Below, piece after piece: positions 1 to 64,000 of a DNA stretch of 64,000 nucleotides. The DNA comes from a virus. Its lineage: Duplodnaviria; Heunggongvirae; Uroviricota; Caudoviricetes. Numbering within the stretch: the first letter of the stretch is position 1; the number at the start of each line of letters is the position of its first letter. The notes under the pieces are model-generated. The model saw nothing but the letters and a program-made list of their open reading frames with translations, searched no databases and was not told the DNA's origin. The position numbers were made by a program, and so were the translations under genes. Location: IMG/VR virus record IMGVR_UViG_3300031555_003397. One strand, given 5' to 3'.

Positions 1-335
1 GTTGTAGTCCCATTATCTCACCTTCTTGGATTTTTTGATTTCTTTTAGGATTTGATTGATTTCTCCTCTGCGCTTCTTGCTCAAGGTCAAATACTTATCC
101 ATCATAGCTTCCAAGATTTCATCAGCAGGAATCATAACTTCAGCCATGACTTTTTGCTTTTCTTCATCACCAGCGCTTTCATCAATCAGCTTCTTATCAA
201 TTTCTACAAGTTCACCTTCGTGCGAAGTAGGAACGCATAGCACCTTTGCCAATCCCAAAAATTCCACCGGCTCCAGCGCAGGCAAGCTTTTTACAAAAAA
301 CTCGAAATCAGATTCGATTCTCTTTTCAAAAATTT

Positions 336-1670
336 TCATTTGTTCACCTTCTTTTTCTAGCGGTCATTTCTATCACAGATTTTACAACGAGTTGAGAAGC
401 CATCTTTTGAACGGGATTTTCGGACAAATTTGTCCGGATCAATCAACAAGACCTTTCCGCATCCTGTGCATTTTTTGAAATTCTCTGGAAAACTTAGATT
501 CTCTATAATCTTCGCATGGAACTCAGCTGTTTCATTGATGCGCGGAATTATCTTTTGACGGAAGATGGTGCTAATATAATTAGCCGTGTAGGACTTGTCG
601 TATTTCTTGTTTATAATGTCCGCTATGTCTTGATTTTTTGTTTTGTTGATTTTCAAGTCGAGGATTTCACGCTAGGCTTCAGTTAAGTCGGTCATCTCGA
701 TATAATATTTTAGAGTGTCCAAAAGTTTGCTAAGATTTGAGTTAACGGGCAGGGCGCTGATTGATTCTTCGAGTTCATTGAGTTGGCCGAATAGTTCATA
801 TATGTGCTCAAGATTTCCAAAGTCGAAGAAAATTGCAGGGCGCGATTCGGACTTTTTGGACCAATAGAACTATAAAACTTTTTGTAGGTCTGACTCATTA
901 TAAGTAGAAGGGTTTAAATCTCGTTCTGCTTTGAACAACAGGGCGCCAATTGAGCCAGTTTTAAGTCCCAAGGGAAATACCGGAATTTCTGCATCAAAGT
1001 CGGGGTCGACTGGGTCAATCTCTGGTTCAATAGGAGTATGACGGATATGTTTCTCTATGTAGGTGTCGCGCAATGTGAATTGCTCTCGGCGCAATTCGAC
1101 GATGAGATGGCGCTATTTGAGATATTTGAATTGGTTCCATTTGGAAGCAGTTGTTTCAGCATTGGTGAGTTCCTCTTGTGAAAAACGTTTTAAAAGGGCA
1201 GCACGAGGTGGCTCTTTACGGCGCCCGTGCGAAAATTCGTAGTAGTTGAGCATGAGTTCGATTGTGTCGATTCGTTTGAAGAGGTCTTCGAATACGGGGA
1301 CTAAGTGTGCAGGACATTCACTCAAGGTCTTTTTGCGGTCGAAGACTTCGCGGGCAACACGTGTGCGCGCTTCGGTGGGGCGACGTAAACTGGCCTCAGA
1401 AAATGTGGGAGACTCCATCAGGGCATCAAGGGATTCCGTATCATCTCGTTGCCATGTTTTGTTACGGGTTTCAATCTAAATTTCACCACGCTAGGTCACA
1501 TTTAGACCATCCGGGTCCTTGCCCCATAAAATGTAGTTAGCGATGGTTTCTAATTCGTCACTTGTAAGAGGAGTACGCTAAAACTAAGGTTGCTGTACAT
1601 ATTCATTTACAAAGTCACTGCGCCCATCGGTAGATTGGATTGAAAAATCCAAGTGTAATCGGTTTGCCAT
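336..1670 (-). CDS. Hypothetical protein (~444 aa) with C-terminal CxxC..CxxC zinc ribbon; 8 in-frame TAG read through
   Basis: One frame open from ATG 1670 to TGA 336-338. Track ORFs 1113-1418, 870-1094 and 357-656 share this frame, split only by TAG. Consensus promoter 1741-1773. Confidence 0.5.
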
Positions 1671-1740
1671 TTGTAAGCTTAAAACTCCTTTTTAGTGATT
1701 GATTGCGCGATAACTCGCAAGCTATCCGCTTTTTATACTT

Positions 1741-1773
1741 ATATTATATCATATTTGTTAATTGGTTGTCAAA
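1741..1773 (-). promoter_or_regulatory. Minus-strand sigma70 promoter (TTGACA-18-TATAAT)
   Basis: Read on the minus strand. Upstream of gene 336-1670. Confidence 0.5.
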
Positions 1774-1904
1774 TTTGAAAATACTGAAAGGATACCCCGG
1801 GGTGGTAGACGATTTTGAAAAATTCGTTTCGTAGATGTTTCCAAAATTATATAGTTTTTCGTATATGTTTCCACTTACATTTAGAACAAGCAAGGAGGAA
1901 TAAA

Positions 1905-2402
1905 ATGGAAATTTGGAGAGATATAGAACAATATCCAGGATATTAGGTTTCAAACCAAGGTTAGATAAAAAGTTTTAAGCAATCAAAAGAAGGACGCATT
2001 TTAAAACCCAAGATTAGTGCTGGATATGCTGGAATTGATTTTCGCAAAGATGGAAAAAGCTACTATGGTTTAGTGCATCGTATTGTATTGTCTACTTTCG
2101 CGCCCGTAGAAGGATGGGAAACTTTAACCGTTAATCATATAGATGGTAATTGTTTGAATAATAATTTAGAAAATTTGGAATGGATGACTCAATCTGAAAA
2201 TACTAAATATTCTAGAGAAATTTTAAAAACGGGTAATGCTGCTTAGAAAGTACATATAATTAAATTAAACGGAGAAGAATTATTCTATGATACAGTAACT
2301 GCTGCGGCAAAGGAAATGGGAGTGGCGAAAGGAACGATATCTAGATGGGCCAACAAACAAAGAAGTTATGAAGGCAAATATAAGCTGGTGGAATACGTGT
2401 AA
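1905..2402 (+). CDS. HNH homing endonuclease (HNH_3/AP2-like); 3 in-frame TAG
   Basis: RBS ggagg before ATG 1905. Motifs IEQYPGY*VSNQG*IKS and VNHIDGN..NN..NLEW.T..EN. Stop TAA. Confidence 0.55.
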
Positions 2403-2772
2403 TGCGTTTCCACCAGTTTTTTATTTCTGTGTTTTTTGTTTCCAGGGCCGGGAGATTTGGATTGTGCGATTTGTCAAAATTCCCAAAACCCCACCCCCAT
2501 CTTTGTGCATTTTGACGAACGAAAAAATGCAAGTTTTTCTTGACTTCCGTGCTATGCTGTGATAGTATATAGACACAGGGGAACACAAGACACCAACGCA
2601 AGTTTCCCTCGGTCGATAGCAAAACTAAATAAATGGTTTCAACCCTTGTGGGGTCGTGCGGTATCCGTTGTGCGTGTATGTGTCGGATAGTTGCGGATGG
2701 TAGCAAGGCAGTTTCACCGATAAAAAGCTAGAGTTTAGACGCATAAAAGCATACACAAAAAACAATTTAATT

Positions 2773-11095: not shown

Positions 11096-11251
11096 ATGAC
11101 TAATAAAAAATATCAAGTTCAAACCTATGTAGACTGCGCAACCAAAGAAAAAATTGACCAACTTTGCGCCAAATATCAAGAAAGTGTTAGTTCAATTATG
11201 CGGCGCGCAATCATCAAATTCTTAGAACAGGAGGACAAAAATAATGCTTGA
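11096..11251 (+). CDS. Ribbon-helix-helix (CopG/Arc-like) DNA-binding protein (51 aa)
   Basis: RBS ggagg. RHH-like motif SVSSIMRRAIIKFL. Confidence 0.45.
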   Translation: MTNKKYQVQTYVDCATKEKIDQLCAKYQESVSSIMRRAIIKFLEQEDKNNA

Positions 11252-11671
11252 TTTTAATAATCATGGAATTAAAAGTGGCATTTACTCCATAAGTATTGAT
11301 GGCAGAGTGGTATATATAGGGTAGAGCGCTGACCTATATGGTCGTGCTCTTTCTCATCGTTATAATATTTTAAATAGCCAAGAATTGTGGTATCCTCTTA
11401 TGAAAAACTTTCTTGAAAGAGGTCACGAAATATCTTTTAATATCATAGAAAGTGTAAATCCTAAAAATCTAAAACAAAAAGAAAGAGATTATATATTTCT
11501 ATACTAGCCTTTATTCAATCAACAACTTTCAACCAATAATCAAAGAATTCCTTGTAATTACCTTGAAGCTATTCAGACTCTAAAATTAAAACAACAACCA
11601 TATTTAGGAATTGAGACAATTCAAAAAGAAGAATTAGCTAAAGCAAAAGGCTGGTTTGGTGAAATTAATTG
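11244..11671 (+). CDS. GIY-YIG homing endonuclease; 2 in-frame TAG
   Basis: GIYSISIDGRVVYIG*SADLYGRALSH. TAG sits where the YIGQS consensus has Gln. Confidence 0.5.
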
Positions 11672-11854
11672 ATTCGGCGCGAACAGCATCAACCGACAGG
11701 ATTTTTGGAAAAATTTTCGGGTTCGCGCCAATTGATACAAAAACTAAATGAAGTCATCATTAGTGACAAGATAACGCTATATCCTTCATCTTTTTCCAGA
11801 AAATCTTTTACTTTATAAGCTGCGCCGCAGTAAACTTTTCCATACAACTCCTCC

Positions 11855-15180: not shown

Positions 15181-15660
15181 TTATTTAGTTACTCCAACTA
15201 TCCAAACGTAAGTAACTCCAGCTTTATACTTACCAGATGATGCGCCCATACTAAATTGAGTAGAAGTTAAATAGGATGTACTATACAAACCTTTCGCGGC
15301 AGTAGTACCGTGAATATACATAACCTAACCAGTGGTTCCAGTTTTAATTCCCAAAGCGGAAACTAAATAGCCAGTGCCAACTGTCTAACCAGGTTTTGCA
15401 TAAATACAATAGAAATCTGGCTCTACTCCTAAATCATGGGTAATCTTAGTAGTTAAACCAGAAGCATCTGCAGTAGGAGTATATTCTCCAGTCTTGTAAA
15501 CAGAAAAAATTTCAGGGCCATCTCCACCCGTGGGTAGATTTAATATAAGATCCGCTGCCTCACCTGATTTTATTAAATCAGTCTAACCATTTTTTGCACG
15601 AATAGCGTCACAAATGTTTTGATAGTCTACGCCAGGCATCATAACCATTTCAGTCAAAGC
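15181..15660 (-). CDS. Structural (virion) protein candidate; 4 in-frame TAG
   Basis: Frame MALTEMVMMPGVDYQN... is open through four TAG codons to TAA 15181. Terminator hairpin 15146-15175. Confidence 0.45.
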
Positions 15661-16316
15661 CATTATGCGCCCACCTCCGCTACATTAGTAAACTAAGCAA
15701 GTTTAGCATCAATTAAACTGTTAATATGAGCATCAGTAGGAATCTCATCAGTCTTAGCATAACCTTCTGGAACAGTAGTTAAATAATTACCTTTTGGCTG
15801 GTAATTTGTTTGCACCCATTGTTCAGTAGCATAACCAGTTAAATCAACACTACCTCCACCACCAGATTCTGGTATATCAACTAATTCAGCAGCCATCTCC
15901 GCAATTTCTGCTTTGTCTGCATCAGTTAAAACATAGTCCTTACCATCGGTTCCATTAGTTCCATCAGTTCCATCTTTACCATCAAATTCGCCGCTTGCCT
16001 TAGCTTGCGCCAAAGCAGTATTTATAGCAGAATCAAGTTCAGTGGTGTCAAGCTTTTCCCCCAAGGCATCACCAACAGCTTTTGCATCTGCGGCTTTGCC
16101 CTATACTGATAAGGTTGTATCCAATTCTATTTGAACGGTGGGAGTTGTATCTATTTTAGATATCTATTCATCTGTATATCTATTAGCTGTAGTTATGGCA
16201 GCATCAATTTCAGTCTAAGTTATAAGAGTGGGCTTATTAGCCAAAGCATTATAATCATATTGCTCTACTCCAGTATCAGTCTAAAAACCTTGGATTGGAT
16301 TTTCAGCCATTATATC
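15650..16316 (-). CDS. Tail-fibre-like protein with collagen-like G-x-x repeat; in-frame TAGs
   Basis: Starts MAENPIQGF*TDTG. Contains DGKDGTDGTNGTDGKD. The track shows only the 15693-16064 fragment. The 3-prime end is approximate. Confidence 0.4.
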
Positions 16317-24597: not shown

Positions 24598-25377
24598 TCA
24601 CCTTACCCTTTCCAGAAGATACTTATCACCCATAATATCTTCCAATGTAATTTTATTTAATTTTGTATAAGGTATACGAACAAGCGGATAACCCTTGTCT
24701 GCACAAAAATCATTCTTTATTTTATCTCTTTCTTGAATAGCTTCTAACGAATCACTATTACTCCACCAAGCTTCTGGTCCAACAAAATGTTGACGTCCAT
24801 CGAATTCAATAAATCTAACTGGATTTTCAAATTTATCATCGTAGATAATAAAATCAAAACGAAGTCTTTTGCCAGTTTCTTTAACCAGTTCTGGCAATGG
24901 GCTATCATAGTAATAATTTATATTATTACTATCTAATATTTGCTATATTTGATATTCGCCAAGTGATGATATGCATTTTCCACAAGACTAGGTCTATCCT
25001 TGTTTCAAAGAATTACCCATTACTTCTTTTGTTTCACCACAATCACATTGACATTTATACCAACGACGATTGTGCCCAGGTATCTACTATTTAAATCCAA
25101 TGTCTTCAACTACAACAAGTTTACCAAAGCGGGTCCCCGGCTAAATTTTGTTATTTTCTGACTACTCATAATTAAAATTAATTAAGCCTATACTTTTTCT
25201 ACAACCACAAGATTTGGTATTACCACTTGTTAAAGAACCAATTGGAATCTTTACGATATTACCACAGCTACACTTACATTCCCATAAATACTAACTACCT
25301 TTTTTCTCTTCTAGACGTCTTAAAGCAGTAAGCCATCCAAAAACTTGATTACTTATATCTTTCGGTTTACCGGCCAT
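24598..25377 (-). CDS. Vsr/DUF559-like PD-(D/E)XK endonuclease with N-terminal Cys clusters; several in-frame TAG (including tandem TAG TAG)
   Basis: C-terminus RFDFIIYDD..RFIEFDGRQHF. Upstream frame MAGKPKDISNQ... is broken only by TAG. The frame join is uncertain. Confidence 0.35.
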
Positions 25378-29240: not shown

Positions 29241-30554
29241 TTAACCAGCCGTTATTTTCCAATCTGATGATGTTTTCATATATGGAATAACCAGTTTCCA
29301 GGGTTTTGTATCTGTGGAACTAGAAGGATAATACATCCATACCATTGCTATTTTATATTTATCAGTGTTATTAATAAATAAACGTACTGAACCATCTGCT
29401 TTCCAAATAGCAATGTAAGTTATATTAGAAGAAATTTCCTGCTCTGTTCCTGCTGCCAACAGACCAGAGGTTTGAGTTTCGGAAGTTCCCCATCCAAGAA
29501 ATTTATAACCTACGCGAGTAGGAGTAGGTAGAGTTATTTTACCTTTAACATCATTGTGAGTCCAATATGCATATACAGTTGTTGCCGATTCATAATACGC
29601 TGCAGCATTTGCACTTGAAGCAGAGGCAGAGGTAGCCCAACCACCAAAAGTCCATTTTCTTGTAGTTTTTACAACTTCAGAAGAAGTAGATACTATTCCT
29701 CCGTTAGCATTAAACTAAACAGTATACTATAATGATGCTGGATAAGTAGGGTCTTTAATTGGCTTTGTTAAATTAGAAATATAATTATTAGTATAAGTAT
29801 AGGAATTTTTAGATGTATATATAGGATACAAGGCTATATCATAACTAGGCATTATATAACTTCCACCAGGATTATAAGTAGTACCATTACCATTAGCGCT
29901 TGTATTCCAAGAGCTAAAAGTATAATTAGTTTGTCCACTTTTTATAGCAGTAATCGAAGTAGTAGTTGTATTTTTATTACCAAAATAACCGCCATTACCA
30001 TTACCAGTAATAATAAAATTAGAATCTGCTAAAAGAGTACTACTTTTAGAAGGGCCAGAAGATAAAACAGTAAAAGAACTTCCTGCAGTATATTGATAAT
30101 AAGCATAATAACTTCCATCTGGCTTATAGTAATCAACCCAGTACAATGGATTATATGGCGTTAAACCAGAAGCCGAAGTAAAGGTGACTCTAATACTTCT
30201 AGCACCAGCGCTAGCAGAAGAACCTCCAACATCAATATAATAGCTAGTTCCTAAGGTTGCAGTACCAGAGGTATTTGTACTTACAGTTACTTCAAAAGTA
30301 CAAAAAATTCTCTCAGTACCATCTAAGGTATTACTAATGCCGCTACTAAAATTATCAAGATAAGAACTACCTCTACAATAAGGTGAATTTAGACCATAGT
30401 TAGAATCAATACGTCTTCCCTTTACTGTAACAGATAAAGTTCTTGAAGAACCATAGCTTCCAGTTTCAGAAACAGTTACAGAGGTAATACCAATAACGTT
30501 TTTACCTTTTCCCGCAGCGTCGGTAGATGCTATGCTATAATTTAAAGAGGCCAT
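29241..30554 (-). CDS. Tail-fibre / receptor-binding-like protein (S/T/G/N/Y-rich); in-frame TAGs
   Basis: Track fragments 29727-30554 and 29241-29459 join through TAG codons. Stop TAA at 29241. Confidence 0.45.
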
Positions 30555-31029
30555 TCAATCACCCCGTAACAACAAAATAAAGCTAGCCAACTGTACCAGT
30601 AATTCCAGCATCATTAGGGTTAGTATTGCCATAACTACTATCATCAACTACAATTGCACCATTAGCAGTTAATAATCCAGAAATTGTGACTGCTTTACTA
30701 AAAGTAGTTGCTCCGCTTACTGTTCCGCCAGAAGAAGCAAAAGCGCCAATATCACTACGAATTTGAGCTGGGGTTCTTGAATAAACTACATTATTATCAT
30801 CAGCCACTAAAATTTTGGATTGTTTAGCTGTGGCCGCTGGTATCGTAGGAATAACTAAATAATTAGAAGAATTTACTAAACCACTTGCTGCCAATCCAGT
30901 TAATTGCTAAATAATTCCATCATTATTTATATAGAGCGCGCCATCTTTAACATAACCAAGTTCAAAAGGAGCTAAATTTGAAGTTGTCGGTACGCTACTA
31001 CCATGTTTAATCTAAATTGTATTTGCCAT
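30551..31029 (-). CDS. Tail-fibre-associated protein; 3 in-frame TAG
   Basis: RBS ggaggtaaaaa, then ATG. Frame MANTI*IKHG... is open to TGA at about 30551. Confidence 0.4.
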
Positions 31030-33611: not shown

Positions 33612-35184
33612 ATTAGTAAGCATAATTACCAATATTTAACCCCTTCATTGTTGTTTTAATAGTGATACCATTACCAATTAAGTGATTAAAAACGCTTGTA
33701 TTTTTCGCAGTCGGCGCCCAAGCATGGCCCAACCATTTCCAAAATTCATTTGGTCCTCTAGATGGACCTTCATCCCAATGAATTCCAGAATTGCATATAA
33801 TTTTAGTTTCAATATTTTCAATGCATCCTTGATAGAAGGCTAATATTCTTGAACCTGGAACAAAATATTGCTAACTAATATTATAAAAACAAACTGTATC
33901 ACTAATATCGGCTATAGCAGTTCTAAGTAGCTCTGCTGTATATTCTTTTTCTAATACATCTTCTAGGTCGTAAATAGTACCAAAGTAATGTTTGTTGATA
34001 TCAGCATTGAAGAAGAAGTTAGCAAGAAATCCAGTAAAAGATTGTGAATCACCAAAATACTGCGCGACTTCGTTGGGATGCTGTTTTACTTCAATATTAC
34101 TTCGTGTGAAAGCACCATTGGGGCCTGCGTTGACAGAATAGTTTTTAACCTATATACCAAAAGCATCAAATATCTAAACGTCTTGTTTGCCCAGATTCTG
34201 ACCAACAACTTCCGCTATTGATTCATCTAGACGCCCGCCGGTTTTCAAGTAAAGATAATTAATTAATAAAGCCGTACCAAATTCACCAAATGCACCTAAT
34301 AAACCATTTCTAACATTACTACCTATAAAAAACAGATTATATCCAGAGGATAAAACCGAATCCAAAGTTGTGTCTAAGGCCTAATTAAATTCAGCGCTAC
34401 CAGAGCCACCAAAATATTGCTTTAATTCTGTGCGTATATCTCTAATTGCTTGGTCTAATTCTGCTTTAGTCTAAGTTGGATTTTCAGCCATACCCTTTTT
34501 AATATCGGCCATTGTATAGCCCCAAGGATAGGGACGGTATTTAATTATCTAAGATAATTCACTAGTTGTAACTCGATTACCTCCAAGCTCTATAGTAATC
34601 ATTTTATCTAGCTCTGTATCAGAATATAGAAAAGAAGCAAGTGCTTCAGTATTAAAAGAAGATAAATGATAATTTTTTTTCATTAGCCTATTTACCATTC
34701 TTTTAAGACTATTAACATTTCCTTTTACAGTTATGCCTAAGTCTACCGGCTATCTAAAAGCGGCGCTTAAAGCTTTTGAAATCTTGTCCATTTCGCTTTG
34801 CGCTTGATTGGTATTGATTTTAATATTTAAATCAAACTCATTCATATCTCGAGTTCCAGTCTTACCACCTATTAGCTTACTAATAAACTTAGATACATTT
34901 TCATTTGACGCTCGTCTTAAAAGTTTTCCATCATCAGAATTCATCATCATCCGTAATAAATCCATAAACTCTTCATATGAGTTACATCCAAATTTTTTAT
35001 AAAAAGCCAGCTCTTTTGCTTCCAAAGCATCTATTCCACCAGAAATAGAGTTTAATTCTTTCATTGCATCTTTGGCGTTTTTAAGAAAAGCATTAAAGCG
35101 GAAATAATGGTAATTGGTATGTAAAGTAGTATTTCCATAAGAAGCTTGATATAATTCACCCATGGTTCTATATTCATTACTCAT
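33612..35184 (-). CDS. Large structural protein candidate (~520 aa); about 9 in-frame TAG
   Basis: The 34750-35184 ORF runs through a TAG at 34750 into one frame interrupted only by TAG. The 3-prime end is approximate. Confidence 0.4.
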
Positions 35185-36772: not shown

Positions 36773-37078
36773 TTACATTATACAATCCCTAATAATTCGT
36801 TGTTTAACAAGAGTGTCATATTTATCAAATTCATCCCAGTAAACTGCATAGGTGCCACCAGGAAGAACTAATTCACCAGAATGGTCATAGCACTTACCTT
36901 TATATTCTACAAAGAAATGTCCATAAATCGCATCGTAAACAATCCGACTTTCTGGAAATCTATCTTTAAGAATCAAGGCAAAGTAATAACAATTGCCATC
37001 GCGCCAATTACAATCTTTTGAAAATCTTCGGTTAATGAACTCAATCACTTCATCTTGCATTTTAACTCTCCGCAACAA
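36773..37078 (-). CDS. Hypothetical protein
   Basis: ORF. Confidence 0.4.
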   Translation of the reverse strand: MLRRVKMQDEVIEFINRRFSKDCNWRDGNCYYFALILKDRFPESRIVYDAIYGHFFVEYKGKCYDHSGELVLPGGTYAVYWDEFDKYDTLVKQRIIRDCIM

Positions 37079-37286
37079 TACCAGTTCTTCGATAAATCAT
37101 CTTTGCAAGCATATCAGAATGTTTTAACTCTTCGGCAATGATTTTACGAACTTCTTGCTTTTCGCGTTCACTAAGTTCATTTTCAAAACAATGAAGAATC
37201 TTATAATAACCTTGACGAGCTTCTGCTTCATCAGCAATATTTTCTTCAAGTAATTGACACAATGAAAAATCAACCTAAGGCATTAA
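37062..37286 (-). CDS. Small hypothetical protein; TAG as third codon
   Basis: RBS ggagtg plus ATG 37286, then CCT TAG GTT, then the track ORF. Confidence 0.35.
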
Positions 37287-43375: not shown

Positions 43376-43383
43376 TATTGAGG

Positions 43384-45588: not shown

Positions 45589-46002
45589 TTAAACTATATC
45601 GCCATTAAAACAAAACAAAATCTTTATACCACTTTTGATTTGATTTTGGAGTTTCGCCATAATAAATTATCATGCTACCCTTCGCCGCCTTATCAATTGG
45701 AACAAAAATAATATGTTCAAATTCTGGATTAACGACAGCAAAATAATCAATTAAACCAATATAATTATGGTTAGTTATTTCATTGTAATTTTTAGAAGTG
45801 CTTCTAGTATTAAATACCCAAGTATCTTGAGAAGTACCCCTATAAGCAGTTTTTACCTAAATTCTAAGCAAATTACCATTGTAATCAACAACAAAATCAT
45901 ATGGTAAATTATTACCTATTGGTTTACAAACTGGTATATCTTTTACCAGACAATGAATAATAAATTTCTATTCAGAAATATCCCCAATTTGAGTTTTATT
46001 CA
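45589..46002 (-). CDS. PD-(D/E)XK-family putative homing endonuclease (paralog 3); 2 in-frame TAG
   Basis: RBS ggagg, then ATG 46002. LLRI*VKT aligns with LLRIQVKT and LYRVQVKS in its paralogs. Stop TAA. Confidence 0.5.
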
Positions 46003-46100
46003 TTATAATAGCCTCCTATGCTATTTATTATAAATGCTCGCTTGGATAGGAGCCATTACTCAATAAGGAGCTACCTCATTGCTACCGAGCAAATATCTGG

Positions 46101-46171: not shown

Positions 46172-46194
46172 ATATTCGGTTGATTTCTCAACCG

Positions 46195-46600: not shown

Positions 46601-46601
46601 C

Positions 46602-47009
46602 TTATTTGCTAAGAACCTCCTTAGCAATATAATCTTTGGCAAAACAAATGTTTTTAATTTGCCCATTTTTTGTTGGGACTAATCTCAAAGATTTTTCTCT
46701 GGACCCACATTCTGCTATAGGAATTAAATAACATTCATCATTAAACCAAGTACAAAAATAATCAATTTCTGACTGATAAGAACGACGATTTGCGCCATCT
46801 CTTGTAATGTGCGAAGAGCAAGTTTCAAAAGAAATTTTTTCTCCATCGCTCTTTGAAGTTTTTACTTGAATTCTTAATAATTTACCCTCATAATCAAGGA
46901 TAAAATCATACCGTGCAGGACTTTCTGGAGTAGAAACCATGTATCCCAACTCTAAAAAATAAGTCTTGCATTTTAACTCTGTTATTGTTCCTCTTAAATT
47001 ACTATCCAT
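46602..47009 (-). CDS. PD-(D/E)XK-family putative homing endonuclease (paralog 2)
   Basis: YDFILDYEGKLLRIQVKTS. Confidence 0.45.
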   Translation of the reverse strand: MDSNLRGTITELKCKTYFLELGYMVSTPESPARYDFILDYEGKLLRIQVKTSKSDGEKISFETCSSHITRDGANRRSYQSEIDYFCTWFNDECYLIPIAECGSREKSLRLVPTKNGQIKNICFAKDYIAKEVLSK

Positions 47010-47043
47010 TAAAATATCTTAACAAATATGTCTCATTCGATAC

Positions 47044-47117
47044 GAACCAAATAGGTCTAATGGTGCCTAAGGTAAGATTTGAACTTACGACCCCTACCTT
47101 ATGAGGGTAGTGCTCTA
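47044..47117 (-). tRNA. tRNA-Met/Ile2(CAT) copy 3
   Basis: Anticodon stem CTACC/GGTAG, loop CTCATAA. Confidence 0.6.
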
Positions 47118-47196
47118 ACCATCTGAGCTACGTAGGCATTTAGAGAGGGTCTTGTGGAATACGCCCCACTCGCTGCGGTGACCCTCAGTACCGTGG

Positions 47197-47269
47197 TCCA
47201 AGTGACAGGTCTCGAACCTGCGGCCTCGTGATCCCAAATCACGCGCTCTACCAGCTGAGCTACACCTGG
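47197..47269 (-). tRNA. tRNA-Pro(TGG)
   Basis: Anticodon stem CGTGA/TCACG, loop TTTGGGA. Confidence 0.65.
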
Positions 47270-47272
47270 ATA

Positions 47273-47425
47273 TCACTCAACTTCCTTGCGCGCCTTATCT
47301 TTCTCGCGTCCGCGATTGTAGACAGCGCCCTTACCTTTTTTGGCTTCAACCTTAGAGCCACGACGTCTAAACTGAAGATACTGCTGAAGCTCTTCGCCGG
47401 TTTTCTTCATATATTCCTTGCCCAT
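47273..47425 (-). CDS. Small basic protein (50 aa)
   Basis: ATG 47425 to TGA 47273. Not in the ORF track. Weak call. Confidence 0.25.
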   Translation of the reverse strand: MGKEYMKKTGEELQQYLQFRRRGSKVEAKKGKGAVYNRGREKDKARKEVE

Positions 47426-47797
47426 TAGAGTTACTCCTTTCAAGGTTTTTATTAACTAGACGGATAAAAAGATACGTTTATAAACCCCAATTATATGTTG
47501 TCTTTAAAGATATAGTTGCTGTGTCCGTCTAAATAAGCCTTACGCTTCATTGTATAAATATTATACTTTAAAATTGAGCAAAAATCAAATTTTTTAACTC
47601 AATGATGTATCAATCTCTACATCTACGCATAAGCGTGACCGCATCATTTGAGTGAAGGAACGACAGAATCCATTAACTGTTGACCACTTTGAAATGATTG
47701 ATACATCATTCAATTAAAAATGGGGTCTTGGTGTGGGTGGGTAGCACCACACATTTCCCAGCCAGCAGGCGTTTTCTTCTTAAACTACAAGACCTGG

Positions 47798-47883
47798 CAC
47801 GGGTGGTTGGGATTCGAACCCACGTGGTGCTTACGCACACGAGTTTTGGAGACTCGCGCCATCGACCGCTAGGCGACACCCGC
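47798..47883 (-). tRNA. Unusual tRNA with Trp anticodon CCA but type-II body (long variable arm, G73)
   Basis: Anticodon stem CGAGT/ACTCG is perfect, loop CTCCAAA. Variable-arm hairpin GTGCGTAAGCAC. Length 86 nt. Confidence 0.5.
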
Positions 47884-47886
47884 ATA

Positions 47887-48630
47887 TTAAATTTTATTCC
47901 ATTCTTCATCAGAATAAAGTTTGATTTCTTTGATTTTTGAGGGCAATTTTTCTGCTATGCACCATTTACGAATTGCATTATCAGATACCCCAAACTTTTT
48001 ACCAATTGTGGTAAAAGGAGTGCTTCTGATAAGATTTTTTAATTCCTCTCGTGAAGGTCTTCTGCTTCGATTTGTTTTATTTACACATTCTACAGAACAA
48101 TATTTATCTTGAGAAGGCTTTAATTTTTTACCACAGCAAAAACAAAACCGTTCTTTTTTACGAAGCGGATAAGTATAATCTTCTTGTATACGTGTTTTTC
48201 CAGTATTTATTTCACTAATTGTATCAATACCAACATTATACCTTTCAGCAATTTTACCTAAAGATATATCAGTATTTATAAGCAAATCATAAATTTCAAC
48301 CAATGATTCTGTAGAAATTTTTACGCAACAATTTGAAGTACCCGCCCCACCAATTGTTTGATTATATCCATTATTGTAACTATCATATAACGCAATATAA
48401 TACTTTTCTAAACTATTTAGTTCGGTATGAGAACATTCCACAAGAACTTCAAAGTCAAAATTATCTATTCCATATTCTCTAATTGCAATATATAATGGAG
48501 CATTATAACTTTGCTCTTTAGCCATTTGACGATGAGCGCGCCATCTGCGAGAAATATCAATAGACTGCCCTATATAACATTGCCCTGTAATTTTATTTGT
48601 AATTTTATAAATTCCAACCATTCTTATCAC
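47887..48630 (-). CDS. GIY-YIG homing endonuclease with C-terminal zinc finger / NUMOD-like region
   Basis: GIYKITNKITGQCYIGQS. Confidence 0.6.
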   Translation of the reverse strand: MIRMVGIYKITNKITGQCYIGQSIDISRRWRAHRQMAKEQSYNAPLYIAIREYGIDNFDFEVLVECSHTELNSLEKYYIALYDSYNNGYNQTIGGAGTSNCCVKISTESLVEIYDLLINTDISLGKIAERYNVGIDTISEINTGKTRIQEDYTYPLRKKERFCFCCGKKLKPSQDKYCSVECVNKTNRSRRPSREELKNLIRSTPFTTIGKKFGVSDNAIRKWCIAEKLPSKIKEIKLYSDEEWNKI

Positions 48631-48706
48631 CTTCTAATTATAAGTAGGGTTTCAATTTATAAAATACATAAAATTGAACCAAGAGTAAAATTTTTGGAAT
48701 ACTATG

Positions 48707-48792
48707 GAGGAAGAAGTGGGATTCGAACCCACGGAACCTTTCAGTTCGCCACCTTTCCAAGATGGTGCCATCGGCCACTCGGCCATTCTTCC
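48707..48792 (-). tRNA. tRNA-Ser(GGA) (type II)
   Basis: Acceptor GGAAGAA/TTCTTCC, loop TTGGAAA, long variable arm. Confidence 0.6.
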
Positions 48793-48797
48793 ATTGG

Positions 48798-48871
48798 GGT
48801 GAAGGACGAGAATCGAACTCGCAACTACTGGAACCACAATCCAGGGTTCTACCTATTGAACTACCGACACC
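48798..48871 (-). tRNA. tRNA-His(GTG)
   Basis: G-1 and C73 present. Loop TTGTGGT. Two mismatches in the acceptor stem. Confidence 0.5.
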
Positions 48872-48919
48872 AGGTGCCCCGCCATTTTTAAGGTCTAACG
48901 GGCTGACCTAAGAAGTAAA

Positions 48920-49231
48920 TCACTTCATTTTGTAATAGTGATACCAAGTACGGTACTCTTCTTTGGGGTCTGGAGGAGCATCATGATGCCAACGTCTATA
49001 ATGGTCACAGTAAAACCAATCATATTGACGTTGCCAATACTCTTCCCAATCACAAAGCCAACCATAATCGCAAATTTCCCAACTTTCAAACAGATGTTTG
49101 AATTGAGAAGGTTTAAGAGTTATTTTGGGATTTCTCTTGAGATACTGACGCACTCTATGGTTAGCCAATCTCTTGAGTTCCTTATCTTTCTTATCTCCGC
49201 AATATGCGTGCTTCTTGTAACTTCTGCTCAT
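48920..49231 (-). CDS. Small basic Trp/Tyr-rich protein
   Basis: ORF. GC-rich terminator hairpin 49261-49365 downstream. Confidence 0.4.
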   Translation of the reverse strand: MSRSYKKHAYCGDKKDKELKRLANHRVRQYLKRNPKITLKPSQFKHLFESWEICDYGWLCDWEEYWQRQYDWFYCDHYRRWHHDAPPDPKEEYRTWYHYYKMK

Positions 49232-49368
49232 TTGTTCTAAACCTCCTATGAGAGAATTTAGAACAGAACCATCCTAAATGCCATTGGAATCACTCTCCCT
49301 TGATTTGGTGTTTACCCCAGGGCCGCTGGCGCTCCTGCCAGCCATGGGAGCTGACCCTGGGATGCTGG

Positions 49369-49442
49369 TGCACAATACAGGATTCGAACCTGTGACCCCT
49401 TGCTTGTAAGGCAAATGCTCTAACCAGCTGAGCTAATCGTGC
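49369..49442 (-). tRNA. tRNA-Val(TAC)
   Basis: Loop CTTACAA, D-stem GCTC/GAGC. Confidence 0.65.
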
Positions 49443-49449
49443 ATAAAAA

Positions 49450-50170
49450 CATAGATTCCATTTTGCGTTCGTTTTTCAATACCCTCAACGCCTAGACGCT
49501 CTATGATAGATTTTCACTATCCATTGTCATGTGCTTAGTTCTATCGAGTTGGTCTGCGTTGCCACTCCTTGCCAACCACGCCAAGGCCGTTTTACTGCCA
49601 AAAACTTCATCTATGTGTTTACCCTTCACCAGACCGCATTTCAACCGAGCAAGGCAGTAAGACCATTGTGCGGCAGTGGCTCCAGAAACTTTAAAAACTC
49701 TTATCGGTGTCCTATTATATAAATTCCACTCTTACTAGCGCCAGCTCTTTCACTACTGGGCGCGGGTCGCCTTATTACTTTCGGCGCCGTCTTGACCAGC
49801 AAGCTCTTCTCGTCTTGCAGGACTGCTTTCTCTGATTTTCGGGTGGAGGATATTCGAAGCTACCCTCAAGCTCACTCATTTCACCCTAGGCACTTTCAAG
49901 GTATGCCTTACGTCGCGGCTTGGGCATCTTGCCGCAGTTCAATTTTCTTTCAGCGGAATTATCAAACCATTCCGCCTAATTGGTCTGTGGATATGAACCA
50001 ATAACCCTAAATAGACTCCACAAACGCACTCAAACCAATCGAATACGTTGCTTCACGGTCGCCTCGGTCTATCTTGTAGCCGACGCACCCAAGTATTTCT
50101 CACTTGGTAAGAGCCGTGCTTTATCATCCACGGCGATGGTTGGTTTAAATTACGAACCTTTTAAAGCCAA
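49450..50170 (-). ncRNA. Large structured noncoding RNA (~700 nt) with RNase-P-RNA-like sequence blocks
   Basis: No ORF. The minus strand has CCTTGAAAGTGCC, AGGGTGAAATGAGTG and CTCCACCCG in the same order as the J11/12-P12 region of bacterial RNase P RNA. The P4 helix was not identified. Confidence 0.25.
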
Positions 50171-50180
50171 CTGGTCCTGG

Positions 50181-50254
50181 TGGGACAGGCCGGAATTGAA
50201 CCAGCGACACTTAGATTTTCAGTCTAATGCTACTACCTGCTGAGCTACTGCCCC
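50181..50254 (-). tRNA. tRNA-Phe(GAA)
   Basis: Anticodon stem TTAGA/TCTAA, loop CTGAAAA. Confidence 0.65.
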
Positions 50255-50699
50255 GAATATAATCTTCATAAGTTACTTGCTCATGTAAATTTAGATAGTG
50301 AAATTCTCTATGACAATTAGCACATAGAACATCGCATTTTTCAAGTTCAGCTTGAATTGTCTTTAAAGAAGCAGATTTTAACATATGATTAATAGTGTCT
50401 ACTTTTTGGCTATTATCTCGATGGTGAAAGTCTAAAACATAACTTCTTTTTTCACCACATTTTAAACAACCACACTTCTTAGCTTCTTCAACTACCGCTA
50501 TATTGGAACTTTTTTGAGTGGCCGCGGTTGCTTTGACACTTTCACGTCGCATCAAACTTTCTTGATAATGCTATCTCTCTTGTGCTCTTTGACATTCTTT
50601 ACATTGAGCGTGTTTTCTGCCCTCAGCTTTATTCTTCCAACGAAAATTATCCAAAGGCAATTCTCTTTGACATTTGGTACACTTTTTTAATTCAGACAT
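50211..50699 (-). CDS. HNH homing endonuclease with N-terminal CxxC zinc finger; 1 in-frame TAG
   Basis: RBS gaggagg, then ATG 50699. CANCHREFH motif. The 3-prime end overlaps tRNA-Phe by about 45 nt. Confidence 0.5.
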
Positions 50700-50858
50700 T
50701 AAAAATTCCTCCTCTTTGTTTCTAAATATAAGTAGAATTACAAAGAAAATAGTACAATTTTCCAGTCCAAATTTCAGTCTAAAAATTTAACTAGACGCAA
50801 TATAAGTTTGACAATTTAGCAGATTGTTCCTTGAAAAGTTTGCTGTGTGCGTCTGTGG

Positions 50859-50930
50859 CGGGGGCGGTGAGAATCGAACTCACATCTGCGGTTTTAGAGA
50901 CCGCGGTCCTGGCCTTTGAACGACACCCCA
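50859..50930 (-). tRNA. Amber suppressor tRNA, anticodon CUA, Gln-like identity (tRNA-Sup/Gln(CTA))
   Basis: Perfect anticodon stem GCGGT/ACCGC, loop CTCTAAA (plus-strand TTTAGAG at 50893-50899). U1/C72 unpaired, G2-C71, G3-C70, G10, G73, CCA encoded. Confidence 0.65.
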
Positions 50931-50994
50931 ATATGGGGTGCTACCTATATAACCCTTGGTTCTCGGGTGAACTCGTGTAGCGGTTACTTTATGG

Positions 50995-51066
50995 AGGCCC
51001 CGGAGAATTACGATATCTCGACCTACAGATTAACAGTCTGTTGCTCTGCCTCTGAGCTACGAAGCC
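50995..51066 (-). tRNA. tRNA-Asn(GTT)
   Basis: Anticodon stem ACAGA/TCTGT, loop CTGTTAA. Atypical T-loop. Confidence 0.55.
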
Positions 51067-51153
51067 ATATCAAACAATTCTAGACACATAATACTTATCA
51101 GATTTACAGTCTAATTTTTCCAGTATGTTACATTTGCTGTGAGTGTCTTATGG

Positions 51154-51226
51154 TAGCCCCGATGGGATTCGAACCCATACTGGAAGGATTTTAAGTCCTC
51201 TGTCTCTGCCGTTGGACTACGAGGCC
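51154..51226 (-). tRNA. Type-I tRNA with Leu anticodon UAA (short variable arm); paralog of 36488-36560
   Basis: Loop CTTAAAA. Shares the AACGG D-loop, CCAGT variable arm and T-arm with the UAG tRNA. Discriminator A. Confidence 0.55.
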
Positions 51227-51964: not shown

Positions 51965-52430
51965 TTAGACATTGGGAATTTTCAGAATCATACCGGCGCG
52001 CAGAATATCAGACTTTAACTTGTTAAACTCTTTGATTTCTACGTACCGATTACCATTACCTACTCCGTAATAGTGTTCTGCTATATCCCACAGAGATTCC
52101 CTCTTCTTTACTTTGTGCAAAGTAATGTCACTTGTAGATGTAGTAATTACAGAAGAAACTTCTGGCTGTTCTTCACCAACAATACTCATACCTGTCACAA
52201 AAATTTCTGGTATCTCCGTAGTTTCCTTGTGTTCATGCGGAACAGTAAACTTTAAGTTAATCCAAGAACCATTTTCCAATTGGCCCCAACCATTTTGCTC
52301 AGCAACAACATTATGAACTTCATCCATCTTAATTGTGCCTAGAATTTGGGCAGACATAGATGGCTATAAGCGACAATTCAATAATTTAGCTGTCACTTTA
52401 ACTTGATTAGCAAATCCCATTGTAAATCCT
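51965..52430 (-). CDS. LysM-domain protein; in-frame TAG near the N-terminus
   Basis: C-terminal LysM (HKVKKRESLWDIAEHYYG...ILKIPNV). Upstream region is in frame through a TAG. Confidence 0.4.
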
Positions 52431-54437: not shown

Positions 54438-55262
54438 TTACTCCTCTCCCTTGTATTTCCATTTGTAACCATATGCTGTCTTTCTTTCGCCCCTAGCGCA
54501 TCTATTTATTGGAGTACCACTGCTTACTCCTAACTCTCTCGCGGCAGCCTCGCAACTTGGAAATTCTGCCAAAAAATTATTATTTAAATCAAACTACGTA
54601 ACTTTTTTGCCAGTAGTTTTCCTCTCTTTAGTTAATAGATAATCTTCTATTGGCGTTTCATCTTCTACATATTTCCAAATATAACCACTGCTACTTTTTA
54701 ATTTACCGTTACAACAGGCAATAATATTAGAGCCATTTGTCTGCCCTGTAGCCCTACCTGCTTCCGAAGCAGATTCAAAAATTTGTATAAAATCGCCTTC
54801 TTTTGAAAACTAAATCACTGGTTTGGCGTGTATTCTATTATGAATTTCTTTGTGACTAACAGAATTTGCGCGTAATATATTTTGAATTGTTCCATCGCTA
54901 GCGCCAGTAATTTTACTCAACTCCTATGGAGTTTTCCCATCAAGCCACAACTAATACACTTCATCGTAGTTATACTTGGTCGCACCTTCTCCGCCTAATG
55001 TAGAATTATATCCATTGTGGTAAGAATCATAATAAGCAATCCAAAATTTTTCTCTTTCAAAACGATTAGCAAAATCACATTCTTCAATTTGTTTAATCTG
55101 AAAATGTTCTATCCCGTACTTTCGCATTGCTAATTGTAATTTAAAATTTCTTTTATAAAGATCTTGAATATGTTTAATCCAGCGATGTTCTATCCCGATT
55201 GCCGTTTCACCAACATAAACTTTGTCATTTATATCATTTATAATTTTATATATAAAAGCCAT
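54438..55262 (-). CDS. GIY-YIG homing endonuclease with NUMOD-like C-terminal repeats; about 4 in-frame TAG
   Basis: FIYKIINDINDKVYVGET..RWIKH. Reads through the TAG at 54951 to TAA at 54438. Confidence 0.5.
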
Positions 55263-57010: not shown

Positions 57011-57047
57011 CTCAATCATAAAATTTCTGGCTAGAATTTTGAACTTG

Positions 57048-57359
57048 CTATTGATAAAGCTCTTCTTCAGTAGATGGTGGCCTTAAAGCGGTTTCATATT
57101 TAATACCGCCTTTAGTGTTTTCTTTCATAGACTTACCATAATAGCAGGCTTGGCTAACGCCATATGCGGTCCAAGGGAAGCCAACCAAAGCTACAATCCA
57201 AGGAAGCTCTCCAAAATATTGGTTTTTAATACAATAGAAGGCCAAGTAGAATGCACCCAAAGTCACAATCCAAATTAAAGCAGACTCTTGGATTAGTAAA
57301 ATTTTGGAAAACTCTTGCTTCTTTACGTATTTACCTTTCTTGATTTTTTTCTTTTCCAC
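57048..57359 (-). CDS. Small membrane protein
   Basis: GTG start at 57359 with RBS aggagg. Confidence 0.4.
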   Translation of the reverse strand: MEKKKIKKGKYVKKQEFSKILLIQESALIWIVTLGAFYLAFYCIKNQYFGELPWIVALVGFPWTAYGVSQACYYGKSMKENTKGGIKYETALRPPSTEEELYQ

Positions 57360-57429: not shown

Positions 57430-58125
57430 TCAAATTTTATAAGCCCACAAATAACCACCAGAAGTTTTTTGTTTACCAAGACAGCAATTATATATTCCAG
57501 TTTTACTAATTCCTACACTATCTGCGGCAGTTTTTACATTATCATATTCAGCAATTAAATTACCTTTCATATCATACTAGAATACCTTCTTATTATTTTT
57601 TCTAGCAATCTCTATTGTTTTTTCTTCTTTTTTAAGACCTTGTTGCCATTCCCATTTAAAGCCGCCACTACTTTTTGTATTTCCATTACAGCATTTGCGT
57701 ATATTAGATGGATGAATTCTCACTTCATCTGCGGCTTCCTATACAGTGTTAAAAATCTTTAAAAACTATCCTTCTAAAGTATATTGTATTACTGCAGCTC
57801 CATGATTTATTTTTTCTTTAATTTTTTCTTGACCGCCAATAGTGGAATTATACCCATTATTGTAACTATCATAATAGTTTATCCAATATTTTTCCTTAAT
57901 ATCCAATTCTGAATTTTGACATTCTTCTAAAATTTCCGGAGTAAAATTATTTTCACCATATTTAATTATCATTCTATGAAATAAAGGAAAGCTTTGTCTA
58001 ATACCATCAAGAGCTTCTCTAGCTTCTTTTTTATGCTACTCCCATCTTTGGTTTAAAGTTTTGGAAGTCTATCCAATATAAACTTGATTAGTTACTTTAT
58101 TTGTTATTTTATATATAATACCCAT
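57430..58125 (-). CDS. GIY-YIG homing endonuclease; several in-frame TAG
   Basis: MGIIYKITNKVTNQVYIG*TSKTLNQRWE*H. Stop TGA at 57430. Confidence 0.45.
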
Positions 58126-61237: not shown

Positions 61238-62071
61238 GTGGGTTTTATTTATAAAATAACAAACAAAATAAATAACAAGATTTATATTGGATAGACCTGC
61301 CGAGATTTATAGACTAGATGGTGTGAACATAAAAGCAGGGCAAATTGTGAATATAATAATTATTTATATAATGCAATAGCAAAATATGGCGCAGAAAATT
61401 TTACTATAGAACAAATAGAAGAAATTAAGACTGATCTTCTTGATGAAAGAGAAATTTATTGGATTGCTTTTTACGATTCAAATAATCCCAAAATAGGATA
61501 TAATTTAACAATTGGAGGACAAGGTAAAAAGAATTATCGTACTGATAAAATTAGAGAATTGTGGGATTCTGGAAAAAGTATTGGAGAAATAACTGAAATT
61601 TTATAGTGTGATAAGGGCACAGTGCGCGAATCTTTACTAAGCCATGAAACTTATTCAATTCATGAAAGTCTTTCGCGCAGAAAAACCCAGCGAAAAGGAG
61701 TAAATAAATATTCATTAGATGGTATATTTATACAACATTATAATTCAATTTTAGAAGCAGCTAATTATGATAAAAATATAGCTAGCGGGATAGGTGGATG
61801 CTGTAACAAAAGACACGCTTAGGCTTACGGTTTTCAATGGCGCTTTGAAGATGATGAACCGCCTCAAGCATTAAATAATATTAAATTTGGTAAAAGAACA
61901 ATATAGTAGATAAGCCTTGATAATATAGAGCTATAGATATTTCAATCTGCTGCCGAAGCTGCACGTCAAGTTGCTCCCGGACGCAATGTAAATTCAGCGA
62001 GTAGTCAAATCATTCAAGTATGTAAGGGGAAGAGACAAACTGCTTATGGATATAAATGGCAATATAAATAA
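61238..62071 (+). CDS. GIY-YIG homing endonuclease; about 7 in-frame TAG (including tandem TAG TAG)
   Basis: GTG start. GFIYKITNKINNKIYIG*T.RDL*TRW.EH. Confidence 0.45.
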
Positions 62072-62475
62072 AAATGCTCCGGTGATTTATTCACCGGAGT
62101 TTTCTTTTAGATAGGCTATAATTGCATCTATCTTATCATCTTGAATTTGTAAATGATTATCAATTCTATCTTGAACTTTTTGTAGTTCGCGCTGTATATC
62201 ATTTATATCAAATAATTTGTCTTGATTCTGTAACTATAGCATAAATGAGAGAATTGTTATAACATCTAAAAAACTATAATTTTGCTAATACATTAAATCT
62301 ACCTCCTTACCCTAATTAAAAGTAGATTTATAAGGCACAAGCTGCATGAAATTTGATTTTTAGAATAAATTATTGTATAATATATATAATAAAATAATTA
62401 TAATTATGGAGGATTATAATGAAAATTAACGATAAACAATTAGAGGAGCTTCGCAGTTGCGAGCTTTATTAGAGT

Positions 62476-62919
62476 ATGTTACCTCGATATCAAAAAAATA
62501 TTGAATGGATAATTAGAGAATATATAAAACTAACCGAAGAAGAAAATATCAAAGTAAAAATTCATTTTGTAACTCCAATGGAAGATGGCTCAATTAAAAT
62601 GCATAGCCCCATAGAAGAGCAAGTTAATCAGCGTCGTCTATTAAATTTGAACTCACTAGATTTTGATTTTGGCCTATATTTTACTAGCGATGCATTTATG
62701 CCATTTTTTGGAGAAAGAGAAATTGGTTTGGTTGAAGCAACAAATTATATGGATGAAATAGAAGATGGAGATATTTGTTTACTTGCTGATAAAATAGAAG
62801 ATAAATATTGGTTAGCGACAAAGGAAAAAACTGGATTCTTTACATTGGACTGTGAATATTTAGATAATGGAGAAGCAGTAGTTCTACTTGGAAAGATTGT
62901 GAATATTGAAACTCGATAA
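62476..62919 (+). CDS. Hypothetical protein
   Basis: ORF, with a terminator hairpin after it. Confidence 0.45.
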   Translation: MLPRYQKNIEWIIREYIKLTEEENIKVKIHFVTPMEDGSIKMHSPIEEQVNQRRLLNLNSLDFDFGLYFTSDAFMPFFGEREIGLVEATNYMDEIEDGDICLLADKIEDKYWLATKEKTGFFTLDCEYLDNGEAVVLLGKIVNIETR

Positions 62920-62955
62920 AAAGACCCCTCTCGTGATGAGAGGGGTTTTCTTTTG

Positions 62956-63357
62956 TTACTCGATTAATTGCCATCCAAAAGGATAATCGACTGGAGAGTG
63001 TGTATTGTAAGCAACAAGACACTCATACACTTTTCCCTCATAAATAACTTTGTCGCCTTTCATATAAGGATTTGTGCTATCAGGCTGCTCCCATTCTAAA
63101 ATAGTACCATCTTCAGCTACAAGCACTTTAGCAAATAAACTAGAAGCATTTAAAGGAGTCCAATCAACCAAAGAAGTGTGATTTTGTAAAACTTTGTACA
63201 AAACACCTTCATATAAGATACGTTCGCCAGCAACATAGCCCTTACCTTCTTTCCAAGTAGGATAAAGGCTAGGCACTTGCAAAGACATATCATCAGTTGC
63301 GATTTCTCTTAGCTTTTTAAAAGCTTCAATAAATTTTTCAGCTTCAATTCTAGTCAT
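62956..63357 (-). CDS. Protein with two CBM5/12-like carbohydrate-binding repeats
   Basis: Y.G..V.Y.G..Y.C...H.S..W.P motif twice. Confidence 0.4.
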   Translation of the reverse strand: MTRIEAEKFIEAFKKLREIATDDMSLQVPSLYPTWKEGKGYVAGERILYEGVLYKVLQNHTSLVDWTPLNASSLFAKVLVAEDGTILEWEQPDSTNPYMKGDKVIYEGKVYECLVAYNTHSPVDYPFGWQLIE

Positions 63358-63674
63358 TACAGCACTTCCTCCAACATAGTCAAAATTTCTTTTGCCTTTA
63401 AAGCCTCGTAATATTCCATAGCAATTTGAGCTTTTTCAAAAGTGCATTTTTCTTCGGTACCATTCATCGTACCTTCGCTAATGGTATAGACAGTGTCTTC
63501 ACAAGTAGAAAGAATTGCCCCATCTTCAGTTTCAATTTCTTTAGGTACCTTTACGCAAATGCCTTCGGCTTCTTCCTAGGTGCATAGCACATAGCTGCCA
63601 TTTTCTTTATGAAGCTTTACATATTTAATATCATCAACAATAAAACTAGAGTTATTTATAGTTATTTGGTACAT
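63357..63674 (-). CDS. Hypothetical protein; in-frame TAG
   Basis: ATG 63674. Approximate. Confidence 0.25.
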
Positions 63675-64000
63675 TTTCAGTTCCCCCTTATTAAATTCCA
63701 AATATAGGCCAAATCACCAATACTAGCATTGTAAAAATCATGATTCCAAAGCCAGTGATCGGGATGCTCTTTTCTTTTATATTTTTGACAGAGCTCATCA
63801 TCCCATACTTTATCCCATCGTTCTTGATATTGCTCATCTTTTTTTTGTAAAAGAGAGACTATATCTCGGACAAATTTGCCACGGATTAAACCCTATCCAT
63901 CTTCATTAATAGCAAAAAAAGTATGAGCATTTTCACTTGTAACCGCACAAAGGGGGCGATTATTGTGATATATAATTTGGTCTTTTTCTTCGCATTCAGA

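Follow-up and report, generated by a model that had tools for sequence, protein, structure and literature searches.

TAG is very probably read as glutamine in a subset of genes of an uncultured SPbeta-like phage lineage

In 2014, Ivanova reportedly predicted from metagenomes that phages recode the amber codon TAG to glutamine (Gln). Partial TAG-to-Gln recoding (genetic code 15) has since been described in gut phages (Borges 2021/22; Peters 2022). In a survey covering eight clades, these phages carried suppressor transfer RNAs (tRNAs) and occasionally release factor 2 (RF2), recoding being enriched in structural and lysis genes, with an intron homing endonuclease also concerned (bioRxiv 10.1101/2021.08.26.457843). 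TAG recoding was confirmed by metaproteomics in crAss-like phages (PMC9523058), and it was also described in phAss-1, for which a Phassvirus group was proposed (Babkin et al. 2023, PMC10607447). Here, we analysed the 64 kb of DNA in the IMG/VR record IMGVR_UViG_3300031555_003397 (hereafter the window), which belong to a large uncultured tailed phage. A reading of this DNA made from the sequence alone had proposed that TAG is a sense codon, most likely Gln, in a defined subset of genes; codon-level, motif, tRNA and permutation evidence agree with this proposal.

TAG as a sense codon in the window

A curated set of 90 genes was built with TAG treated as sense. In this set, 68 in-frame TAG codons are distributed over 20 genes, one of which (62087-62347) is doubtful as a gene, and the TAG-bearing genes contain no in-frame TAA or TGA. 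The same pattern was observed in the spans backed by Pfam/PHROG models or full-length homologs, which hold 48 TAG, 0 TAA and 0 TGA. Moreover, homologs of the TAG-bearing genes are kept at full length in hundreds to thousands of database clusters. Since TAG is the only stop triplet interrupting homology-supported genes, and since these genes are kept full-length in many relatives, TAG is a sense codon.

The 90 genes end at TAA (50) or TGA (40), and none ends unambiguously at TAG, whereas about 21 TAG ends would be expected from its share of the stop triplets (23%, from trinucleotide frequencies; P(<=3) = 3e-7). The sequence-only reading had stated that every TAG gene ends at TAA or TGA, which is borne out in the curated set, and that no gene in the window appears to use TAG as its stop. 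The latter statement holds apart from three ambiguous genes (15663-16310, 30559-31029 and 57012-57359), in which a TAG lies 7–11 codons ahead of TAA or TGA. The TAG at codon 438 of the gene 336-1670 is a sense codon, because it is aligned with CAA in relatives and the KKKVN(K) tail that follows is conserved.

Fifteen genes had been listed in that reading as single open frames. All of them contain in-frame TAG, but two are in fact two genes each: 15181-16316 is made of 15663-16310 and 15181-15663, in different frames with a TAATG stop/start overlap, and 29241-31029 is made of 30559-31029, which ends at TGA, and 29241-30554, which follows 4 nt later in another frame. Both members of each pair contain TAG. 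Several other boundaries were displaced by 1–16 nt and were corrected (33613, 11672, 45605-46003, 51965-52420 and 37062-37283). The curated set adds the TAG genes 57012-57359, 62419-62919 and 63357-63701 and, doubtfully, 62087-62347. Annotation under translation table 11 would break the ~20 TAG genes of the window into ~88 fragments.

Two measures were set aside. The comparison of total open reading frames (ORFs) between table 11 and a TAG-sense code was not discriminating, as TGA-sense and TAA-sense codes lengthen ORFs more, and a codon-usage test of flanks by stop type was confounded by neighbouring genes in the same frame. No clear bias was found in the TAG +4 context or in the position of TAG along genes.

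The amino acid at TAG and the suppressor tRNA

We compared the window, codon by codon, with related metagenomic phages at the sites where TAG is present in some and another codon elsewhere. TAG corresponds to Gln: it alternates with CAA/CAG at 23 of the 28 variable sites, the remainder being three Arg, one Glu and one Pro. For example, the 444-aa gene (336-1670) has CAA/CAG at all seven TAG-variable sites in relatives that are 92–97% identical. For the 523-aa gene, an 84%-identical relative gave 12 variable sites, with nine CAA/CAG, one GAG, one AGA and one CGT, while Gln codons occupy seven of nine sites when the HNH-like gene 24598-25377 is compared with a 72%-identical relative (L001).

TAG also holds conserved Gln positions in the motifs YIGQ, QVK and EQQSE, and the invariant Q of the GRQH motif, in the endonuclease family of 24598-25377, is TAG in homologs from other recoded phages. 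We confirmed that the PD-(D/E)XK paralogs read LLRIQVKT, LYRVQVKS and LLRI-TAG-VKT, as noticed from the sequence alone, and that three GIY-YIG genes have TAG at YIGQ; at that position, their paralog 47887-48630 uses an ordinary Gln codon. In 72 TAG-free sequences (70 external and two in-window paralogs), this YIGQ column holds Q 34 times and K 20 times (28 and 16, respectively, in a smaller count). BLOSUM62 scores summed over 23 TAG columns, counting only residues encoded by ordinary codons, reached 29.3 for Q, 10.6 for E and 7.1 for K, and were negative for the others.

Many of the database homologs (hits P0001-P0263) were predicted with TAG as Q; translation of their DNA with table 11 does not give these proteins, and the DNA has TAG where they have Q. 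Since these homologs were called with TAG as Q, protein-level Q counts from the large protein database are partly circular and were set aside, and we therefore relied on the DNA-level codon comparison. This concerns any residue count opposite TAG from such databases, which is circular unless checked in DNA. TAG columns could not be interpreted from distant homologs (<45% identity).

The acceptor-end features read by glutaminyl-tRNA synthetase (GlnRS) are U1 in a 1:72 pair that is weak or missing, G2:C71, G3:C70, G73 and G10, and the Escherichia coli tRNA-Gln identity set also has U35, A37 and U38. In the window, a genuine tRNA(CUA) (50856-50930), the predicted amber suppressor, has U1 unpaired opposite C72, together with G2:C71, G3:C70, G73 and G10, and all features of the E. 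coli set are present except U38. The tRNA(CUA) is conserved in the metagenome contigs L221, L260 and L262, with copies that are identical or 95% identical, the latter with a T-stem pair that has changed in a compensatory way from G-C to C-G. Other 75-nt phage tRNA(CUA) genes have U or C as the first base and keep G73. The phage's own tRNA-Gln(UUG) and the suppressor tRNA share a UGGGG.../...CCCCA-G-CCA acceptor type, with an overall identity of only 65%. These features suggest that tRNA(CUA) would be charged with Gln, and we consider it very probable that TAG is read as Gln through this phage tRNA.

Longer tRNA(CUA) genes of 86–94 nt, with a long extra arm or an insertion, were observed in other metagenomic phages (L090 2764-2853, L105 1683-1776, L182 10648-10737, L247 10696-10784 and L194 2048-2133); they may carry another amino acid (Ser, Leu or Tyr type) or introns.

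Some points weigh against the Gln reading. Arg, Glu or Pro stand at five of the 28 variable sites, which is compatible with ordinary substitution. Position 38 of tRNA(CUA) is A, where the E. coli set has U38. Many Bacillota lack GlnRS, and such a host would leave the charging route of tRNA(CUA) unclear. Finally, no RF2, aminoacyl-tRNA synthetase (aaRS) or other code-switch gene was found in the window.

A sense meaning other than Gln, such as Glu, Lys or pyrrolysine, is nevertheless very improbable. ARAGORN labels the tRNA 'Pyl', from the anticodon only, and several TAG columns are mostly E, K, N or P in distant homologs. In close relatives, however, CAA/CAG predominate as given above, GAG replaces TAG once and GAA or AAA/AAG never do; TAG occupies conserved Q motif positions, and Q has the highest BLOSUM sum by a wide margin. 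Moreover, the tRNA folds into an ordinary cloverleaf and its acceptor features are of Gln type, and Pfam/PHROG scans of the window gave no pyrrolysine-pathway family.

The recoded genes and the proposed timing of their translation

The partition of the genes is non-random and conserved. Seventy of the 90 genes are free of TAG, versus 46 ± 3 expected if TAG were random among Gln codons, and 0 of 20000 permutations reached 70. The TAG-free set includes genes for NAD and nucleotide metabolism, RNA repair, ligase and RNase H, which are metabolic or early-type. In the TAG set, eight homing-endonuclease or nuclease genes hold 32 of the 68 TAGs, nearly half; the rest comprises the operon leader, fibre- or surface-binding-type genes (Flg_new, collagen-like), an SH3/LysM gene, a protein with two transmembrane segments and genes without assigned function. 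In the relatives L167, L169, L171 and L173, genes are rich in TAG or free of it as they are in the window: the 523-aa and HNH-like genes remain TAG-rich and the TAG-free genes remain TAG-free.

With respect to gene class, recoding includes late, structural and lysis-type genes, but also many homing endonucleases, and YonB has no TAG. Most genes of the relatives' structural operon carry 1–8 TAG, whereas the capsid-like YonB gene of 350 aa (L171 18016-19068, L173 15538-16590) has 0 TAG and 13 CAG and its upstream neighbour of 188–192 aa has 0 TAG and 6 CAG. The most highly expressed late gene, the capsid-like YonB, appears to avoid the recoded codon. In the window, TAG is lacking from two of the GIY-YIG and two of the PD-(D/E)XK genes.

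The two sets also differ in composition. GC content is 0.346 in TAG genes versus 0.404 in TAG-free genes, GC at third codon positions (GC3) is 0.245 versus 0.374, and codon-usage scores are weaker in TAG genes. Their Gln codons are 115 CAA, 16 CAG and 68 TAG, versus 104 CAA and 176 CAG in TAG-free genes, a shift that is partly a general preference for A-ending codons and partly looks like TAG replacing CAG. Such differences (GC3, CAA over CAG) fit a different origin or mutational history of the TAG genes, as would be the case if the host itself used code 15, without any code switch, and uneven TAG use reflected gene origin or composition. We find this explanation hardly credible, as no bacterium is known in which TAG is Gln. 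Moreover, 70 genes avoid TAG wholly while the phage keeps a suppressor, and the published survey places such phages on standard-code hosts (bioRxiv 10.1101/2021.08.26.457843). That TAG would be an ordinary stop, and the interrupted genes, homing endonucleases above all, decaying pseudogenes, has a negligible probability: homing endonuclease genes often decay, and the lower GC and weaker codon-usage scores of TAG genes would fit, but the interruptions in homology-supported spans are TAG only, frameshifts are absent, conservation is full-length in hundreds to thousands of homolog clusters, TAG swaps specifically with CAA/CAG, core genes of the relatives' structural operon also carry TAG and a dedicated tRNA(CUA) is present.

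Two kinds of elements were found upstream of TAG genes. The sigma-70/sigmaA-type promoter of 336-1670 (1743-1772) is kept in relatives (L171-L174, L295, L297 and L298), down to 46–49% identity. Moreover, a 14-nt motif, YACTTWNNNNYAGW (consensus TACTTATAnnTAGA), has 17 matches, versus 3.0 expected. In 10 genes, TACTTATAnnTAGA ends 8–26 nt upstream of the start codon; nine of them carry TAG (Fisher p = 2e-6), and most are homing endonucleases. The motif is also found ahead of endonuclease genes in the relatives L167 and L169, and it may serve the class of recoded or mobile genes as a promoter or operator.

We propose that the phage uses a partial genetic code 15, following a pattern and model already published (bioRxiv 10.1101/2021.08.26.457843; PMC9523058; PMC10607447). 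The ~70 genes without TAG, as sense or stop, are translatable by an unmodified standard-code host; they would be expressed first, the tRNA array among them. The Gln-charged phage tRNA with anticodon CUA, encoded in this array of 36 genes, would then decode TAG, and the ~20 genes with 1–8 TAG would give full-length products only after suppressor tRNA accumulates. We infer this timing role, in which late and selfish genes are translated with a delay, with lower confidence than the reading of TAG as Gln. The consensus promoter of 336-1670 makes it plausible that the host holoenzyme transcribes this gene as soon as infection starts, and translation would then be the gate. It is an unlikely but possible extension that the recoded genes form a co-regulated class beyond 'late genes'. 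On this reading, the motif upstream of TAG genes and the housekeeping-type promoter of the operon leader would together point to translation, through the availability of suppressor tRNA, and not to transcription, as the main timer of virion genes; the code switch would also keep the many selfish endonucleases of the phage silent until late.

Two observations speak against a timing role: the promoter ahead of the recoded 444-aa gene is a perfect one of housekeeping type, and the homing endonucleases 38280-38897 and 47887-48630 are without TAG. With a recoded operon leader behind a sigmaA-type consensus promoter and a capsid gene avoiding TAG, the lineage offers a clean test case for the code switch as a timer.

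The lineage and its comparison with known systems

The features of the window are collected in Table 1. The NAD, nucleotide-metabolism and RNA-repair genes, with those for ligase and RNase H, surround the tRNA array, and many homing endonuclease genes are scattered through the window.

Table 1. Recoded genes, tRNA genes and upstream elements in the window
Position	Strand	Feature	Basis
336..1670	-	444-aa gene, 8 TAG; leader of an SPbeta-like structural/packaging operon in relatives	homologs
1690-1740	-	hairpin GATAGCT-TGCG-AGTTATC in the 5' untranslated region, after the promoter	pairing-preserving changes in L171-L174
1743..1772	-	sigma-70/sigmaA-type promoter TTGACA-N18-TG-TATAAT (12/12), upstream of 336-1670	sequence match
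1872, 16330, 25398, 35194, 48633, 50721, 52447, 55285, 58145, 61214 (also 10506, 10867)		sites of the motif YACTTWNNNNYAGW	
1905..2402	+	HNH/NUMOD4 homing endonuclease, 3 TAG	family model
11244..11672	+	GIY-YIG-like gene, 2 TAG, one of them at YIGQ	motif alignment
15181..15663	-	160-aa gene without assigned function, 3 TAG	
15663..16310	-	215-aa gene with collagen-like G-x-x stretch, 5 TAG; distinct from 15181-15663	
24598..25377	-	homing-endonuclease-like gene (PHROG 374/559, DUF2726), 8 TAG	models, homologs
29241..30554	-	437-aa S/T/G/N-rich protein, Listeria-Bacteroides repeat (Flg_new), 2 TAG	
30559..31029	-	156-aa gene, 3 TAG, directly upstream of 29241-30554 in another frame	
33613..35184	-	523-aa conserved gene without assigned function, 7 TAG (15 and 13 in relatives)	
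35318-51226	- (all)	tRNA array, 36 genes	ARAGORN
37062..37283	-	73-aa gene, TAG as third codon, AGGAG ribosome-binding site ahead	
43159-43234	-	tRNA-Gln(CUG)	ARAGORN
43301-43374	-	tRNA-Gln(UUG)	ARAGORN
45605..46003	-	PD-(D/E)XK (PDDEXK_5) gene, 2 TAG, one inside the QVK motif	
50211..50699	-	HNH endonuclease, 1 TAG	
50856..50930	-	putative amber-suppressor tRNA, anticodon CUA, encoded CCA	ARAGORN; Rfam tRNA 49.1 bits; cloverleaf fold
51965..52420	-	SH3_3 + LysM protein (predicted cell-wall binding, lysis-associated), 1 TAG	domain models
54438..55262	-	GIY-YIG/NUMOD1 homing endonuclease, 4 TAG	family model
57012..57359	-	small membrane protein, two transmembrane segments, one TAG 11 codons ahead of TGA	
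57430..58125	-	GIY-YIG/NUMOD1 homing endonuclease, 5 TAG	family model
61238..62071	+	GIY-YIG homing endonuclease, 7 TAG	family model
62087..62347		doubtful gene with TAG	
62419..62919	+	166-aa gene, 1 TAG	
63357..63701	-	~105-aa gene, 1 TAG	

The product of 29241-30554 is likely a surface- or receptor-binding protein, judging from its repeat and composition. The C-terminal TAG of 57012-57359 may truly end the gene, be read as sense or serve to make two isoforms; a homolog in another recoded phage (L027, about 15194-15570) also has a TAG near its C-terminus. For the 444-aa protein, PHROG 5767, annotated as 'sigma factor', matches the C-terminal part, while Pfam gave no function and a PDB sequence search gave no match.

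The tRNA array of this one phage also holds three structured RNAs detected at the Rfam gathering threshold, namely a ROOL RNA (44373-45044, minus strand, 296 bits), a GOLLD RNA (39822-40333, minus strand, 153 bits) and a drum RNA (49935-50061, minus strand, 46 bits). Two tRNAs on the minus strand are unusually long and still match Rfam tRNA, i.e., tRNA-Trp (47795-47883, 89 nt) and tRNA-Ser(UGA) (42072-42167, 96 nt). These large structured RNAs, the upstream motif, the promoter and the TAG-avoiding capsid gene are worth a further look.

No nucleotide match to the window was found among GenBank phages (INPHARED), lineage-specific proteins, including that of the 523-aa gene, were matched neither in GenBank phages nor in IMG/VR, and an IMG/VR search that included the suppressor tRNA gave no match to the lineage. 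Close relatives are present in metagenome assemblies, as contigs of 135–163 kb. In these, the homolog of 336-1670 heads an operon whose products match Pfam YonG_N, YonD_N, YonB and YomW, which are SPbeta-type virion genes. The 444-aa gene of the lineage has ~1900 database homolog clusters, yet a GenBank phage record is absent. Strong Shine-Dalgarno sites and the TTGACA-N18-TG-TATAAT promoter type point to a Bacillota-like host, and we infer a standard-code host of Bacillota type; the metagenome-assembled genome bins that contain relatives disagree on taxonomy (Muribaculaceae, Bacteroidales, Clostridium and Clostridia).

The E. coli supE-type amber suppressor is a tRNA-Gln with a CUA anticodon. 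The window tRNA resembles it in this anticodon and in U1 with little or no 1:72 pairing, G2:C71, G3:C70, G73 and G10, but differs from it in being phage-encoded and in having A38 instead of U38. The phage phAss-1, of ~136 kb and from the human gut, has TAG inside 41 ORFs and suppressor tRNA genes, and is alike in combining TAG within genes with a suppressor tRNA. The lineage of the window differs from it, because it has no nucleotide or protein match in GenBank phage records expected to include phAss relatives.

As in other code-15 phages, in-frame TAG is aligned with Gln and a phage suppressor tRNA(CUA) is present; recoding concerns only part of the genes (late, structural and lysis genes in the published phages, with a homing endonuclease in one clade), and early-type genes can be read with the standard code. 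The window shows the sequence hallmarks of code 15, i.e., interruptions by TAG only, Gln correspondence, a tRNA(CUA) and depleted TAG terminators. In contrast to these phages, 32 of its 68 TAGs lie in free-standing homing-endonuclease-type genes, RF2 and aaRS were not seen in the window, and its lineage is not placed in any named clade, although the relatives' 135–163 kb are within the range of the Firmicutes-infecting Agate clade (154 ± 27 kb). TAG-to-Gln recoding in phages being already established, this lineage leaves the phenomenon itself unchanged and is a further example of it, an independent one of SPbeta-like type among phages that recode TAG to Gln in part of their genes.

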